Translations under genes and position numbers: made by a program
Shown here: in pieces, positions 42,785 to 47,757 of the stretch
Layout of the letters: every line of letters starts with the position of its first letter
Position numbering within the stretch: the first letter of the stretch is position 1
DNA from: Gemmatimonadaceae bacterium
Lineage (GTDB): Bacteria; Gemmatimonadota; Gemmatimonadetes; Gemmatimonadales; Gemmatimonadaceae
Direction: 5' to 3'
DNA length: 64,000 nt
Assembly (NCBI GenBank): GCA_045803545.1
Contig: JBJMOW010000004.1
Location: 640,001 to 704,000, forward strand
Notes under the pieces: model-generated
What the model was told of the DNA's origin: nothing
The model's database searches: none
Seen by the model: only the letters and a program-made list of their open reading frames with translations

Positions 42785-44233
42785 ATGCCCTCGATCTCTG
42801 AACGCCTGCTCGCCGCACTCGGCGGATCCTACACCATTGAGCGTGAGCTCACTGGCGGCGGGATGGCGCTCGTCTTCATGGGCGAAGACCACGACCTGGA
42901 GCGAAAGGTCGTCATCAAGGTGCTGCCACCAGAGCTGGCGGCGTCGGTTTCGGCTGAGCGTTTCAGACGCGAGATCCTGACGGTCGCACGACTGCAGCAT
43001 CCGCACATCGTCCCGATCCTCAAGGCGGGCGAGATCGACGGACTGCCGTACTTCGTGATGCCTTACGTCGACGGTGAATCGCTCGACATCAGACTGCGTC
43101 GCACCGGACCGCTCAGCGTGCGCGAGACGATGGCGATCATGAAAGACGTCGCGCGCGCTCTCGCGTTCGCGCACGCGGGAGGCGTCGTGCACCGCGACAT
43201 CAAGCCTGGCAACATTCTGCTCGCGTCAGGATCAGCGACAGTAACTGATTTCGGCGTCGCGAAAGCGTTGTCTTCCGCGCGTCGCTCGGGCGAGAAGAAC
43301 AAGACCAGCGGTCTCACCAACACCGGCATGTCCCTCGGCACCATTCTCTATATGGCGCCCGAGCAGGCAGCGGGTGACCCCGACATTGACGGCCGCGCCG
43401 ACATCTACGCGCTCGGCATCGCCGGCTACGAGATGCTGGCCGGGTCGGCGCCGTTCGCCGACCTCGGTCCGCGCGAGATGTTAACAGCGAGACTGACGCT
43501 GCCTCCTCGCCCACTTTCGAATTATCGGAAGGACGTGCCGGCTGGACTCGAGAGATTGATCGCGAAATGTCTGGCGATCGATCCTAAGGATCGCCCACAG
43601 ACTGCGGCCGACCTCGTCGAGATGCTGGAAGATCCGGAGACGATCAGTGGATCGTTCGCGTCCGCGAATTTCGCGCAGCACGGTCGTCGCGCGAAGCGGA
43701 TGGTGATCAGCGCGCTTGCGCTGGTAGGCGCGATTGTCGTTAGCGCTGGGATCTACACACGCCTGCATCCGAGCGGCACGTCCGCGGCCGCCGAGCCAGC
43801 TGCGATGACGAAGTCCGCGCAGCCCGTGCGGCCGGGGCAGCTGGGTGTGATCGCAGTGTTGCCATTTGTCAGCCTCGGCAATGATTCAGCTAACGCCTAT
43901 CTCGCGACGGGTGTCACCAACGCCGTTGCCGGCAAGTTGACGCAGGCAGGCGGCTTCAGAGTCCTCGCGCCAGGCCTGCCGCGCTCCGTGAAGCGTCGCA
44001 CCGACAGCTCGGTGACCGCGAGCCTCGACGCGCACTTGGTGCTCGAAGGAACCGTCGAGCGCATCGGCAATCGCCTTCGCGTGACCGCGCGCTTGAGCAG
44101 CACTGCCGACGACGTGATGCAGTGGGCCGACGTCTACGATCGCGACGTCAAGGATATTTTCGCGGTCGAAGACGACATTGCCGGCGCGATCGTGACGGCA
44201 GTAACGCCGGTCACGACCCAGAAACGCGGCTAA
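42785..44233 (+). CDS. Ser/Thr protein kinase with TM segment and TolB-N-like C-terminal domain
   Basis: VIK, HRDIKPGN, DFG, YMAPE; IAVLPF. Confidence 0.92.
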   Translation: MPSISERLLAALGGSYTIERELTGGGMALVFMGEDHDLERKVVIKVLPPELAASVSAERFRREILTVARLQHPHIVPILKAGEIDGLPYFVMPYVDGESLDIRLRRTGPLSVRETMAIMKDVARALAFAHAGGVVHRDIKPGNILLASGSATVTDFGVAKALSSARRSGEKNKTSGLTNTGMSLGTILYMAPEQAAGDPDIDGRADIYALGIAGYEMLAGSAPFADLGPREMLTARLTLPPRPLSNYRKDVPAGLERLIAKCLAIDPKDRPQTAADLVEMLEDPETISGSFASANFAQHGRRAKRMVISALALVGAIVVSAGIYTRLHPSGTSAAAEPAAMTKSAQPVRPGQLGVIAVLPFVSLGNDSANAYLATGVTNAVAGKLTQAGGFRVLAPGLPRSVKRRTDSSVTASLDAHLVLEGTVERIGNRLRVTARLSSTADDVMQWADVYDRDVKDIFAVEDDIAGAIVTAVTPVTTQKRG

Positions 44234-44298
44234 GCGCGCGGCGCCCAGCTGCGATCGACGCAAAGGATCCGAGCGCACAAAGTTGACATAATCAGCCC

Positions 44299-44327
44299 TT
44301 GTTTCGGCCTTTCTTCGGGCATAGGTT
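44299..44327 (+). promoter_or_regulatory. Possible sigma70-type promoter for the 44359 operon
   Basis: TTGTTT-N17-TAGGTT; a TTGACA at 44283 has no matching -10. Confidence 0.25.
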
Positions 44328-44358
44328 GGGAATCCAATCCAGAGTTGTCGAGCGCCCG

Positions 44359-44937
44359 ATGCCGAAGACCGATTCCTTCTTCAATCCAGAACACTACGCG
44401 ACCGTCGCCGAGCGGATAGAGATGTTCTATACGCGCTATCCGCAGGGTCGTATCAATACAGAGCTGGTCTCGCACGTCGACGGCGCCATCACGTTCAAGG
44501 CGTTCATCTACCGTGATCCGGGCGATACGACTCCCGCGGCGACGGGGTGGGCGAGCGAGCGCGAGGGCGACAGCGACATCAATACGGTCGCTTGTCTCGA
44601 GAATACCGAGACGTCGGCGGTCGGCCGCGCCCTCGCCAATCTCGGATTCATCGCGAGCGCGAAGCGCCCAAGTCGCGAGGAGATGGAGAAAGTCCTGCGT
44701 ATGCGATCCACGCTCGCGTTCGGCAAACGACGCGAGTCTCCGCCATCGCTCCAGACGCGCGCCAATGCGAGAGATGATGTACTGCATCTGCTTGCGATCG
44801 CCGAGCAAAACGGCTTCTCGGTGCGGCGCGGTGAGATCTTGCGGGCGAGAGTCGTCGGCTACCCCGGACTGATTCTGCCGCGGCTGCGACAAATCGAGTC
44901 CGCACTGCGGAATTGGGTACGTCGGCATGAGCTGTAA
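44359..44937 (+). CDS. Phage-type Rad52/Sak-like single-strand annealing protein (putative)
   Basis: YATVAERI...ATGWASE...LENTETSAVGRALANLGF...PSREEM. Confidence 0.55.
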   Translation: MPKTDSFFNPEHYATVAERIEMFYTRYPQGRINTELVSHVDGAITFKAFIYRDPGDTTPAATGWASEREGDSDINTVACLENTETSAVGRALANLGFIASAKRPSREEMEKVLRMRSTLAFGKRRESPPSLQTRANARDDVLHLLAIAEQNGFSVRRGEILRARVVGYPGLILPRLRQIESALRNWVRRHEL

Positions 44938-44957
44938 CGGGTTGGGGTGCAGTCAGA

Positions 44958-45677
44958 GTGTCCGATCGCTATCCGACTTCCGCGAAGCTTCTTGCCGGTA
45001 TCCACGACGGTGACGAGCCGGCCATTCGCGAGTTCTTTCTGCTCTACGCCCCGCTGCTGCGCGATCAGGCGCGGCGAATGGGAGTCGACGGTGATGAGCG
45101 CGACGATATGGTGACGACTCTGCTCGACGATGTGGTATTGCATCTCATGGAGCATCGCCTCGCGCCGCGGGATCTCGCCCGCTATCTCGTCGCGGCGTTT
45201 CGTAACCGTGCTCGTCGTCGTCATCGCGATTCATCTCGCAGAGAGACCAGAGATGCTGGAGGCTATTCAGAGATTGGTAGCGCCCATCAATCTGTGGTTG
45301 CCGAATGTATTTCGGAGTACACGCTGTCGGTGACGGATGTGGGCGAGACTCATGTCGGTCGATCCGTCATCAGCCAGCTTGCTGAGCGCGTCGCCGGCGA
45401 GCTCGATGTCAGCGAGATGACGATGATGATTGGCATTGGTCGGCACATGCCGCTGCGCGAGATCGCCGAGCAGGTGGGGATAAGCTACGGCGCTGCGCGG
45501 GTGCGTGTGCATCGCCTGCGCGAACGCTTTCGCGGAATCGCGGGCGATTACCTGGCGACCCTCGAGCCTGAAGGGAAAAAGGAATTGTCGAGATTTTTCC
45601 GGCGCGCCGAGCTCGAGTTGCCTGCGGCGCCTGTCCATCAAAGTGCGCAGCGCGTGCTGCGGGAGCGAAGTCAATGA
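44958..45677 (+). CDS. ECF-type sigma factor
   Basis: Region 2 (GDEPAIREF...YAPLL...RYLVAAFRNR) and region 4 HTH (LREIAEQVGISYGAARVRVHRLR). Confidence 0.78.
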   Translation: MSDRYPTSAKLLAGIHDGDEPAIREFFLLYAPLLRDQARRMGVDGDERDDMVTTLLDDVVLHLMEHRLAPRDLARYLVAAFRNRARRRHRDSSRRETRDAGGYSEIGSAHQSVVAECISEYTLSVTDVGETHVGRSVISQLAERVAGELDVSEMTMMIGIGRHMPLREIAEQVGISYGAARVRVHRLRERFRGIAGDYLATLEPEGKKELSRFFRRAELELPAAPVHQSAQRVLRERSQ

Positions 45678-46366
45678 TCAGCAATGGCGATCAGTCGATT
45701 TACGAGTTCATGTCCGTTGTTGGTCGCGAGATCGAGTCGCAGGATCAGCAGCTCGCATTTCAGGATGAAAAGTTTCTGTCCTGGGTCGCCCGTGATCTTC
45801 AGGATTCACTGAATACCGAAGAGCGGACTCAGGACGAGCTCGATGCAGCCGATTTCGCACGTCGCGCGCTGACACGACTGGCCGTACGTCGCGCCGATCG
45901 CGCTCTGCCTCGGCGTCCGCTCCGTGAGCGCTCCGCGCCGGTCGCCGCGACGATCGAGCAATCAGCCGCAGTCGCCAGCGCCAACGGATGTGCGACGCTG
46001 CTCGATCTCGCGGTTGCGGCAGGGCAGGGCAGAGAGATCTGGGATGAGCCGTGCGATCGGTGGCTGGAGCTGCCGGAAGATGTTTCGGCCGGACGTTACG
46101 TGGCGCTGCGCGTTGCCGGTGACAGCATGACACCTGTGCTATGTCCACGGGAAGTGATTCTGATCCAGCTGGAGTCAACGCCGCGCGTCGACGATCTGGT
46201 GGTCGCGCGCCTGCCTGACCAGAGCCACGTCGTGAAGCGAGTCGCGTCAATCACGGACGGCAGCATCGAGCTGGCGTCGTTCAATCCGGACTATCAGCCC
46301 ATCTTCGTCGCGCGCGACCCGTCGCCGGTTGTCGGGACGGTCATCGCGAGATTCACGCGCGAGTAA
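45674..46366 (+). CDS. S24 (LexA/UmuD-type) autopeptidase with non-HTH N-terminus
   Basis: VAAG cleavage site, VAGDSM (Ser), VVKR (Lys), SFNPDY; ATGA overlap with the sigma gene. Confidence 0.85.
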   Translation: MISNGDQSIYEFMSVVGREIESQDQQLAFQDEKFLSWVARDLQDSLNTEERTQDELDAADFARRALTRLAVRRADRALPRRPLRERSAPVAATIEQSAAVASANGCATLLDLAVAAGQGREIWDEPCDRWLELPEDVSAGRYVALRVAGDSMTPVLCPREVILIQLESTPRVDDLVVARLPDQSHVVKRVASITDGSIELASFNPDYQPIFVARDPSPVVGTVIARFTRE

Positions 46367-46412
46367 CGGGGTGGTGTGCATCTGGTCGAGAACATCAACC
46401 GAGGAGCACACC

Positions 46413-46571
46413 ATGAAGCAGTATCAGAACTTTCGCAGTAGCCTTATTCGTTACGTCAGTACCGCTCTCACAGTGACCTTGCTGATCACGCTGCGGATTG
46501 AAACTCCCTGTGCATCGTCAGGCGCTGCGCCGAGTCACGAACTTCATGAAGTCGGATTGCGCCAGCCGTGA
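46413..46571 (+). CDS. Small protein (52 aa) with one hydrophobic segment
   Basis: GAGGAG RBS then ATG; MKQYQNFRSSLIRYVSTALTVTLLITL. Confidence 0.45.
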   Translation: MKQYQNFRSSLIRYVSTALTVTLLITLRIETPCASSGAAPSHELHEVGLRQP

Positions 46572-46637
46572 GAGGAATGGGGAGTGTGAAACCGTGCCTC
46601 GACTTACGCGTACGGATACTCATCGAACGGGAGCCAC

Positions 46638-47372
46638 ATGAGCTCACAGCAGTCGGCAGGGCGTAGAGCAGCAGTCATTATCGGCATTCTGATTCTCGCG
46701 CAGATGGCGGGCAGCGCCCTCGTGAACTTCTTCGCCGAAGCCCCGCTGTTCGATGGCGCAGGATACCTCGCTAATGCCGCGTCTCACTCCCAGCAAATCG
46801 CTGCTGCTGTCTTTCTCGCGATCGTCATCGAGGCGACCTGGGTGGCGATTGCGATTCTTGCGTTTCCCATCCTCGCTGAGCGTTCGCTGAGATCGGCGCT
46901 CGCGCTTTTCGCAGTCAGCATCGTCTGTCTCGTGATCGGCGTCGTCGAGAACTCCGGCGTGATGTCGATGGTCTCGCTGAGTCAGGCTTATGCATCCGCG
47001 AGTCCTGCCGACCTCACGCAGCTCGAGGCGGTGCGCGTCGCCGTAGGTTCAGCCAGGAATTGGCCGCATTATCTCGGACGCATGTTCGATGGCCTTGCGG
47101 CGCTGACTTTCTACATCGCGCTATTCAGATTCGTTCTGGTCCCGCGGGCGATCACCGGTCTCGGTATCATCGCCGTCGCGTCGATGATTACCGGACTATC
47201 GATGCCGTTCTTCGGCCACGCGGTGATTTTCCCGATGCTCGCCCCGCTCGGCCTCACTCAGCTGGCGTTGGCACTCTGGCTGATCGCAAAAGGATTTGAT
47301 GGACGAGCGGTGGCGAACGTCTCACCGGCTATTAACGTCCTTCGAAATAGCCGGGCCTCAGCAGGAGCATGA
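46638..47372 (+). CDS. DUF4386-family membrane protein
   Basis: Multi-TM; GYLANAA...IAILAFPIL...VPRAI...LALWLIAKGF. Confidence 0.75.
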   Translation: MSSQQSAGRRAAVIIGILILAQMAGSALVNFFAEAPLFDGAGYLANAASHSQQIAAAVFLAIVIEATWVAIAILAFPILAERSLRSALALFAVSIVCLVIGVVENSGVMSMVSLSQAYASASPADLTQLEAVRVAVGSARNWPHYLGRMFDGLAALTFYIALFRFVLVPRAITGLGIIAVASMITGLSMPFFGHAVIFPMLAPLGLTQLALALWLIAKGFDGRAVANVSPAINVLRNSRASAGA

Positions 47373-47757
47373 TCAGAACGGCCAACCCGGCGACCGCAAT
47401 CGCCGCTTTAGATCCGGTGTGAGAGTAGAGGGTGACGCAGAGGAGCGCGGCTCCTTCGAGCGGCGTCCACGTGACGAGTGCAGGAGAACCGGCCCTCAAC
47501 CAAAAGGCGCTCGTCGATTCTCCCTCCGCCGGGCGCGGAACGCGATTCATCAAGAGCACTGGCAATGCGCACAGCGCAAGCGCCACCGCTAACAGCATTG
47601 GAATCATCGTTGCCAGGTTGCCGGAGGTATTGGCGTTCGGCAGGACGACGAACTGCGCGACGATCGCGTACAGAATAATCCCAACAGCCAAGGCTCTATG
47701 AATGCTGCGGACGCTTTGTGGCGGGTTGGTGTTCTGGTCGCCCGAACTATTTTGCAT
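47332..47757 (-). CDS. Membrane protein (start uncertain)
   Basis: Four hydrophobic segments. Confidence 0.55.
   Translation of the reverse strand: MQNSSGDQNTNPPQSVRSIHRALAVGIILYAIVAQFVVLPNANTSGNLATMIPMLLAVALALCALPVLLMNRVPRPAEGESTSAFWLRAGSPALVTWTPLEGAALLCVTLYSHTGSKAAIAVAGLAVLIMLLLRPGYFEGR

Follow-up and report, generated by a model that had tools for sequence, protein, structure and literature searches.

A candidate DNA damage-responsive operon in Gemmatimonadota coupling an ECF sigma factor gene to a gene for a LexA-type autopeptidase

Organization of the locus

The subject of this study is a compact operon found within positions 44359–46571 of a 64,000-nucleotide (nt) window from a Gemmatimonadaceae genome, where "the window" denotes the whole stretch of DNA that was analysed. 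All three genes of the module lie on the + strand, and the list of open reading frames (ORFs) shows them tightly packed between 44299 and 46366. In order, they encode a protein resembling single-strand annealing proteins (the SSAP-like protein), a divergent sigma factor of the extracytoplasmic function (ECF) type, and a protein whose C-terminal part is a LexA-type autopeptidase domain of family S24 (the S24 protein). Our proposal, to which we would give a probability of roughly 0.5, is that the S24 protein acts as a soluble anti-sigma factor and frees the sigma factor by RecA-stimulated self-cleavage. The features of the locus are listed below, with HTH standing for helix-turn-helix and aa for amino acids.

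44299–44327, + strand: predicted sigma-70-type promoter, with −35 TTGTTT at 44299–44304, a 17-nt spacer and −10 TAGGTT at 44322–44327; called from conservation across loci
44303–44318, + strand: TTCGGCCTTTCTTCGG, a direct repeat TTCGG-N6-TTCGG in the promoter spacer, probable LexA (SOS) operator
44359–44937, + strand: SSAP-like gene, 192 aa, within the ORF 44299–44937 with ATG at 44359; Rad52/Sak-type phage annealing-protein family by phrog_11717 match and fold
44932–44957, + strand: conserved element TGTAAC-N5-GGGGTG... at the SSAP/sigma junction, covering the stop codon of the SSAP-like gene plus the 20 nt ahead of the sigma start; seen by eye
44958–45677, + strand: divergent ECF-type sigma gene, 239 aa, GTG start; sigma-2 and sigma-4 domains with a long linker carrying a conserved CSE..R motif
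45674–46366, + strand: S24 (LexA-type) autopeptidase gene, 230 aa, without a recognisable HTH; predicted soluble anti-sigma factor
45674–45904, + strand: N-terminal helical domain of the S24 protein, residues 1–77, with the invariant Trp37; proposed sigma-binding part
46019–46024, + strand: codons of the predicted self-cleavage site Ala116–Gly117 (LAVAA/GQG, the slash marking the cut); A115, A116 and G117 invariant in 25 sequences
46124–46126, + strand: codon of catalytic Ser151 (GDSM), invariant in the same 25-sequence alignment
46235–46237, + strand: codon of catalytic Lys188 (VKR), likewise invariant

The pairing of an ECF-type sigma gene at 44958–45677 with an S24 gene that overlaps it at an ATGA had been pointed out in a preliminary description of this DNA, and both the ORF list and the sequence itself bear this out. 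Specifically, the stop codon of the sigma gene and the start codon of the S24 gene share 4 nt (45674–45677).

The sigma factor and its S24 partner

The C-terminal part of the S24 protein belongs to peptidase family S24 by sequence as well as by fold. Residues 113–224 match PF00717 at 66.7 bits (cut-off 23.3), and A115, A116, G117, G149, S151, M152 and K188 are invariant in an alignment of 25 sequences of S24 relatives, which agrees with the earlier statement that the Ala–Gly cleavage site (VAAG), the catalytic Ser (GDSM) and the catalytic Lys (VKR) are all kept. In the structure model (mean predicted local distance difference test score, pLDDT, 80), residues 96–230 superimpose on Thermotoga maritima LexA with a Z score of 14.6 (123 aligned residues, root-mean-square deviation 2.6). 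The corresponding comparison with an Escherichia coli LexA fragment gives Z 13.8 (120 residues, 2.7), a cleavable fragment of lambda CI gives Z 13.0, and Foldseek matches the model to the LexA-like fold at E 3.6e-7. In these superpositions the Ala116–Gly117 region aligns with the cleavage-site region of the LexA and lambda CI fragments. The catalytic domain, the Ser–Lys dyad and an Ala–Gly site ahead of the core are all in place. The protein is nonetheless not a LexA, as the match to the LexA model TIGR00498 reaches only 24.8 bits (cut-off 110.95) and is confined to residues 114–225, with neither full-length coverage nor a winged-helix signal at the N-terminus. With respect to LexA, lambda CI and UmuD as a group, the S24 protein has the C-terminal fold, the Ser–Lys dyad and the Ala–Gly site in common with them, but differs in the lack of a (winged) HTH signal, in its family-specific helical head of about 77 residues and in the coupling of its gene to a sigma gene.

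In terms of structure, this N-terminal head (residues 1–77) is modelled as three helices, spanning residues 4–22, 27–44 and 48–77, with pLDDT values of 42–82 over the domain. Trp37 is its sole invariant residue, and the mean column identity is 29%. The preliminary description could recognise no HTH here, and that impression was confirmed both by sequence and by profile. For residues 1–112, neither Pfam nor NCBIfam gives a family at E ≤ 1, the PDB has no sequence match (best E 0.56) and the ESM Atlas no usable one, and an hhalign comparison of the N-terminal profile with the DNA-binding domain of the lineage's own LexA returned a probability of 0.1%. The fold-search matches listed for the S24 model cover residues 96–230. 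A profile of the domain retrieved only 156 representatives among 1.84 billion proteins, and 94 of the 98 representatives of at least 200 aa carry the cleavage motif xAAGxG; because of these two results, the domain appears to exist essentially only as the head of the S24 protein. Net charge and pI follow no pattern in the N-terminal domain (4.3–11.6 across the family), and no longer fused forms of the S24 protein were found at E ≤ 0.001 among 7646 candidates. A 203-aa metagenome fragment (P0362) was seen in which the C-terminal part of the sigma factor continues into the S24 N-terminal domain in a single frame. As a candidate for a natural sigma–S24 fusion it was set aside as too weak, being a single fragment that may also reflect a sequencing error.

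Between the SSAP-like and sigma genes lies the junction element. Among 56 intergenic stretches, many show it as TGTAAC-N5/6-GG(T/C)GT(G/C), and others as (A/G)TGTC-N6-8-GGTGTC. A sigma-dependent promoter was sought in this interval; what was found is the element, whose spacing is unfit for a −35/−10 pair. It could serve as an operator or as an RNA element. The first of these options bears on an alternative in which the S24 protein is a CI- or PrtR-like repressor with a new DNA-binding head, perhaps acting through this very element on a promoter that its cleavage would derepress, and the sigma factor is only a downstream activator. The PrtR/PrtN and Xre/Xpf switches of phages and pyocins have a layout of this kind, and the S24 protein matches the phage repressor families phrog_4 (E 1.3e-17) and phrog_6201. 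Moreover, phage relatives exist for all three genes of the operon, a short conserved element does sit between the SSAP stop and the sigma start, and the region covered by fold-search matches stops short of the N-terminal domain. A repressor is nonetheless unlikely in our estimation, given the lack of any HTH family at E ≤ 1, of a PDB sequence match and of similarity to the LexA DNA-binding domain noted above. In addition, a domain with a single invariant residue and so low a column identity would be poorly suited to reading a conserved operator, and the 20 nt that lead from the junction element to the sigma start in the window are too few for a promoter.

The sigma factor itself is divergent. 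Taken alone, the protein only just passes the NCBIfam model TIGR02937 (43.2 bits, cut-off 42.9), and all Pfam sigma models stay below their cut-offs. A profile built from 15 members of the family is more telling: it matches the ECF sigma factor CnrH at E 1.7e-7 over positions 10–198, that is, over both domains, and it also matches SigH and RpoE. Pfam sigma region 2 is detected in 4 of the 15 members and region 4_2 in 5 of the 15. The protein is thus placed among the ECF (group 4) sigma-70 factors, which have sigma-2 and sigma-4 only, an assignment that is marginal for the single sequence. Its linker is unusually long and carries the conserved CSE..R motif, and the fold matches of the S24 model include S24/S26 relatives that are signal peptidases acting in trans. 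One could accordingly picture the S24 protein cutting not itself but the sigma factor, for example in this linker, or some other protein. We consider this very improbable, as the S24 protein has an invariant Ala–Gly site of its own in the LexA position, and no conserved Ala–Gly is present in the sigma linker in the family alignment.

The two genes are also tied together by conservation of the locus. Near-full-length relatives of the S24 protein number in the hundreds in soil metagenomes, and those with names belong to Gemmatimonadaceae or Gemmatimonadetes. Within the phylum, the S24 family was found in 18 of 301 genomes: 14 of the 69 from the same family, 3 of the 125 from a second one and, among the 4 other genomes of the genus, 1. 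The 17 other genomes all have a sigma gene directly upstream of their S24 gene (16 found by tblastn, one by eye). A one-genome-per-species collection yielded 76 loci, a set that overlaps the 17, all in metagenome-assembled genomes of Gemmatimonadota and most with intact frames. Among the Gemmatimonadota loci with at least 750 nt of room upstream, the sigma gene directly precedes the S24 gene in 65 of 65, of which 62 were counted by scan and 3 more emerged on closer look; the S24 gene is therefore placed as an anti-sigma gene would be, directly 3′ of its sigma gene and in a position to be co-expressed with it. The 4-nt overlap recurs in 36 of 66 junctions, and the S24 start falls within 30 nt of the sigma stop in 61 of 66. 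Viewed from the other side, the 301 genomes hold 22 strong matches to the sigma family, 18 of them beside an S24 gene, 2 cut by contig ends and 2 orphans.

The SSAP-like gene is a less constant companion. It was found in 52 of 55 loci, and further inspection brought the loci without it to four in all. Conservation of the three genes as a triplet, which had been named as a check on the preliminary description, consequently holds for the sigma–S24 pair but not for the triplet as an obligatory unit. In three of the four loci without the SSAP-like gene, the operator-bearing promoter directly precedes the sigma gene, and on this basis the constant core of the module comprises the operator, the sigma gene and the S24 gene. 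One genome (G098; loci L026, L127 and L128) has at least two copies of the module, on C154 and on C112, the latter cut by a contig end, together with a third sigma gene of the same family that is an orphan, without an S24 or an SSAP-like gene.

Since relatives of all three proteins occur in phages, distribution is patchy (18 of 301 genomes) and the sigma gene is truncated or frame-shifted in a few copies, the operon might be taken for the decaying remnant of a prophage early region with no function of its own. That reading seems far-fetched in view of the 76 loci in a one-genome-per-species collection, with frames mostly intact, and of the invariant catalytic residues and cleavage site. Furthermore, a host-type operator and promoter are kept in 51 of 52 loci, and among 107 neighbouring ORFs there is no phage, integrase or transposase gene.

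Taken together, the sigma-then-partner order, the overlap of the two genes, the helical, HTH-less and family-specific head and the intact LexA-type self-cleavage module are the reasons for proposing that the S24 protein would act as a soluble anti-sigma factor able to remove itself.

The promoter, its operator and the upstream gene

The operon is preceded by a predicted promoter whose call in the window rests on cross-locus conservation, because the window's own copy is weak and a consensus scan of 44150–46750 missed it (0 promoters and 0 terminators returned). Anchored on the TTCGG-N6-TTCGG box, the promoter regions of 56 loci yield the consensus CTTGnnTTCGGnnTTTnTTCGGnnTAnnnT. The first 15 loci examined all share a TTG-17-TAnnnT promoter with the box in its spacer, and in other genomes the box precedes 51 of 52 operons, always within such a promoter.

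The genome at hand contains 25 exact copies of TTCGG-N6-TTCGG. Among the genes with an exact copy just upstream are lexA (with two; TIGR00498, 206.5 bits), dnaE2 (NF004225, 1041 bits), uvrA and ruvB, as well as an Rv2578c-like radical-SAM gene and imuA-like and Y-family-like (imuB-like) genes. A copy with one mismatch is found 50 nt before the start of recA. When a weight matrix was built from eight sites with the operon left out, the operon's site ranked 16th in the genome with a score of 16.0, and the recA site scored 14.2. Because this motif is found ahead of lexA, recA and repair genes alike, it is probably the LexA operator, and the promoter of the operon carries a probable operator common to the SOS regulon. 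This changes one aspect of the preliminary description, in which the circuit was an activator-type, SOS-like one: with a probable LexA operator on its promoter, the operon would not be an alternative to LexA control but would lie beneath it. No published SOS box for this phylum was found in the literature. The LexA box of alphaproteobacteria is GTTC-N7-GTTC, which resembles the present motif in being a direct repeat with an 11-bp period on the promoters of SOS genes; the difference is that TTCGG-N6-TTCGG here fills the spacer of a TTG-17-TAnnnT promoter.

Outside the window, the imuA-like, imuB-like and dnaE2 genes are spread over C2:1015376–1032126 at distances of about 6 kb, each with its own TTCGG-N6-TTCGG box, so that the mutasome genes are dispersed and do not form one operon. 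RecA is present in the genome, and no polymerase with an IMS domain (UmuC type) was found in this assembly, which is 93% complete. These genes are of relevance to another alternative, namely a UmuD-like S24 protein whose C-terminal domain, once cleaved, would be the active product and work with the SSAP-like protein or with an ImuA/ImuB/DnaE2 mutasome, the sigma factor being regulated independently. A weak match to NCBIfam NF007621 (25.5 bits against a cut-off of 110), the occurrence of UmuD′ among the fold matches (Z 9.9) and the fact that the same box marks the operon, the imuA/imuB-like genes and dnaE2 all point in this direction. The failure to find an IMS-domain polymerase in the 93%-complete assembly does not, nor does the helical domain of about 77 residues, which is always present and is conserved as a domain, unlike the short tail of UmuD. 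The two-gene variants that lack the SSAP-like gene also speak against it, and it would leave unexplained why the S24 gene so strictly adjoins and overlaps the sigma gene. We therefore hold a UmuD-like role to be improbable.

Turning to the first gene, the preliminary description had noted a phage-like recombination gene just upstream of the pair, and that label proves apt. By sequence the SSAP-like protein goes with phrog_11717 (E 2.6e-30); the copy of Pfam searched contains no family for it, and its tag in the protein database is PF27148. Its model (pLDDT 80) consists of an N-terminal alpha-beta-beta-beta-alpha domain (helix 16–26, strands 31–40, 43–51 and 61–68, helix 76–94) and a C-terminal domain of three helices. 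Phage proteins in BFVD match the model at E values down to 5.8e-13, and some of these are named ERF, SAK3 or Rad52. Matches to solved folds are weak: the Foldseek match to Sak (8qe9) has an E value of 6e-3, and the PDB lists are headed by Sak, RAD52 and Mgm101, with Z scores (VIA) of 7.8 for Mgm101, 7.2 for Sak and 6.7 for Rad52, values that double-stranded RNA-binding domains equal. Gene context supplies the rest. Nine viral loci were fetched, and in four of the five that are annotated the homologue lies beside exonuclease, SSB or resolvase genes, the genes that follow it being an exonuclease and SSB, an SSB, a RusA-like resolvase, and an endonuclease/resolvase, respectively. In the fifth annotated locus a replication initiator follows.

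Phage homologues thus sit where single-strand annealing proteins do, which is why the label is justified, and the beta-beta-beta-alpha core together with the phage recombination context places the protein in the Rad52/Sak type. With the Rad52 family (Sak/Sak3, RAD52 and Mgm101) it shares the N-terminal fold and the exonuclease and SSB neighbours seen in phages, but the scores are middling, no exonuclease partner is part of the operon and annealing is a prediction only. Most simply, the SSAP-like gene would be a repair function induced along with the switch. DdrA of Deinococcus is a bacterial example of a Rad52-family protein that is induced by damage.

With respect to the surroundings of the operon, none of the genes that flank it in the window is conserved across loci, and the flanks vary from locus to locus, so that no conserved neighbours were found as candidates for a sigma regulon. 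The interval originally singled out ends with 46367–46571, which holds a 52-aa ORF (46413–46571) with a hydrophobic stretch directly 3′ of the S24 gene. Conservation of this ORF is limited to the two closest relatives (L046 and L047), and it does not belong to the module. A DUF4386 gene at 46638–47372 is conserved downstream in 0 of 76 loci. Directly upstream on the same strand, 42785–44233 encodes a Ser/Thr protein kinase whose C-terminal region is TolB_N-like; the gene is syntenic in close relatives but not in distant ones. In other genomes the operon stands beside LigD primase-polymerase and phosphoesterase domains (L020 and L021) or beside a PolX-like gene and an HhH-GPD glycosylase gene, divergently transcribed (L032), neither arrangement being consistent across loci. 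The G+C content of the first ~18 kb of the window is 0.53–0.58, compared with 0.59–0.63 beyond (18001–64000), and this first part may have been acquired horizontally. None of the three proteins matched a family in PADLOC, and Rfam gave no match at E ≤ 1 over 43500–47500. Finally, metatranscriptome contig X14 is identical to the window over 44350–44500 and contig X16 is 98% identical over 45116–45315 (4 differences); these contigs are short and come from two RNA libraries, and cover of this kind does not prove transcription. No RNA cover was seen for the rest of the operon, from which nothing follows either.

A proposed second tier of the SOS response

In our reading, the operon would constitute a second tier of the SOS response, situated beneath LexA control, and from the features described above we infer the following course of events. 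In undamaged cells, LexA would sit on TTCGG-N6-TTCGG within the promoter spacer and keep the operon off. Upon damage, RecA filaments would form, LexA would cleave itself and the operon would be transcribed. The sigma factor and the S24 protein would then be made together, the helical N-terminal domain of the latter binding and holding the former. Only if RecA filaments persisted would the S24 protein cut itself at Ala116–Gly117, leaving an N-terminal fragment that ends in ...LAVAA. Fragments of LexA and RseA that are degraded by ClpXP end in VAA, and RseA(1–108) is a ClpXP substrate. Loss of the N-terminal fragment by degradation would in turn free the sigma factor, which would activate transcription of its regulon. 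The outcome would be a delayed, two-key branch of the SOS response with fast shut-off after repair.

The delay and the AND-gate character of this scheme both follow from the prediction that the operon encoding the self-cleaving S24 protein would also be repressed by LexA. An anti-sigma factor that destroys itself on RecA filaments, encoded in a LexA-repressed operon, would impose two successive RecA-dependent cleavages before a late sigma branch could open; for this composite proposal we would offer a little under even odds. The processing of UmuD, which delays mutagenesis, can be likened to the two-step delay proposed here. A different trigger can also be considered, in which the annealing protein encoded by the operon, when bound to single-stranded DNA, would take the place of RecA. 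The existence of operons with only two genes makes this less likely.

A number of observations weigh against the proposal that the S24 protein is a RecA-triggered anti-sigma factor. No signature of a known anti-sigma domain (such as zf-HC2/RsrA-like or RskA) was found in it, PF00717 being its sole Pfam family at E ≤ 1; the N-terminal domain, in particular, resembles none of the anti-sigma domains of Pfam. The first 30 residues of this domain are modelled at a low pLDDT of 42–51, and the restriction of the fold-search matches to residues 96–230 leaves room for a novel DNA-binding domain at the N-terminus. As to the sigma factor, it barely reaches its family cut-off as a single sequence, no target promoter was identified for it, and damaged copies exist: in G052 the sigma match spans only profile positions 97–217, and in L032/L117 and in L088 the gene is split between frames.

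Distribution also tells against the proposal. It is patchy, with most relatives lacking the module; only 14 of the 69 genomes in the family and, within the genus, 1 of 4 other genomes have it, and the module is therefore dispensable. Mirror-tree distance correlations over 44 triplets are hardly higher for the sigma factor with the S24 N-terminus (0.82) than with the S24 C-terminal part (0.81); the SSAP/sigma value is 0.76, and the comparison is uninformative because the correlations are high for every pair. In terms of the signal, self-cleavage of S24 proteins can be independent of RecA, as reported for IrvR (PMC7101444). Lastly, the genome has two full-length LexA genes, both outside the window, at C4:165461–166066 and C6:218777–219373 (206 and 166 bits, respectively, with TIGR00498), as is also the case in 8 of 12 other genomes of the genus that were searched. 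Motif and matrix scans showed two TTCGG-N6-TTCGG boxes upstream of the lexA gene on C4 and none near the copy on C6, and this second LexA may read a different operator.

The proposed anti-sigma factor can be compared with several characterized systems. RseA–sigmaE and RsiW–sigmaW are ECF sigma/anti-sigma pairs in which the sigma factor is released by proteolysis. The present pair is similar to such systems in its sigma-then-partner order, in translational coupling, in the proposed release through destruction of the partner and in the predicted VAA end of the fragment. Known anti-sigma factors are cut by separate proteases or, in the case of RsgI, an anti-sigma factor reported to undergo autoproteolysis (PMC10328401), by a periplasmic self-cutting domain, whereas the partner described here has a soluble, cytoplasmic, LexA-type self-cleaving domain, its anti-sigma role being predicted.

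The closest parallel for the promoter is SigN (ZpdN) of the Bacillus subtilis plasmid pBS32, which is reported to be made from a SigA-type, LexA-repressed promoter (bioRxiv 10.1101/624585). As in the scheme above, a LexA-repressed promoter there leads to a damage-induced sigma programme; SigN is positively autoregulated and is not reported to have an S24 partner. The Gemmatimonadota operon differs in being chromosomal and in its use, as predicted, of the S24 protein as a second, post-translational key; a promoter for autoregulation was not identified in it. The parts of the operon are all of known kinds, namely an S24 autopeptidase, an ECF sigma factor, a Rad52-type annealing protein and a LexA box. 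Likewise, a LexA-repressed sigma factor (SigN) and a self-cutting anti-sigma factor (RsgI) are already known. In full-text literature searches, no description was found of a sigma factor whose partner has a LexA-type self-cleaving domain as its basis, and the preliminary description, too, did not recognise the arrangement as a described system.

Sigma factors freed by the regulated proteolysis of anti-sigma factors are known, as are LexA-type proteins that act as self-cleaving repressors. If the proposal is correct, no earlier example would exist of an anti-sigma factor whose sensor is a self-cleaving domain of the LexA type, and a protein that joins these two principles would represent a new way of coupling DNA damage to the activation of transcription as opposed to its derepression. 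Synthetic biology would likewise gain a sigma switch that is compact, orthogonal and triggered by damage. For the organisms themselves, the proposal would mean that a major and little-studied phylum of soil bacteria possesses a second, timed tier of the SOS response.

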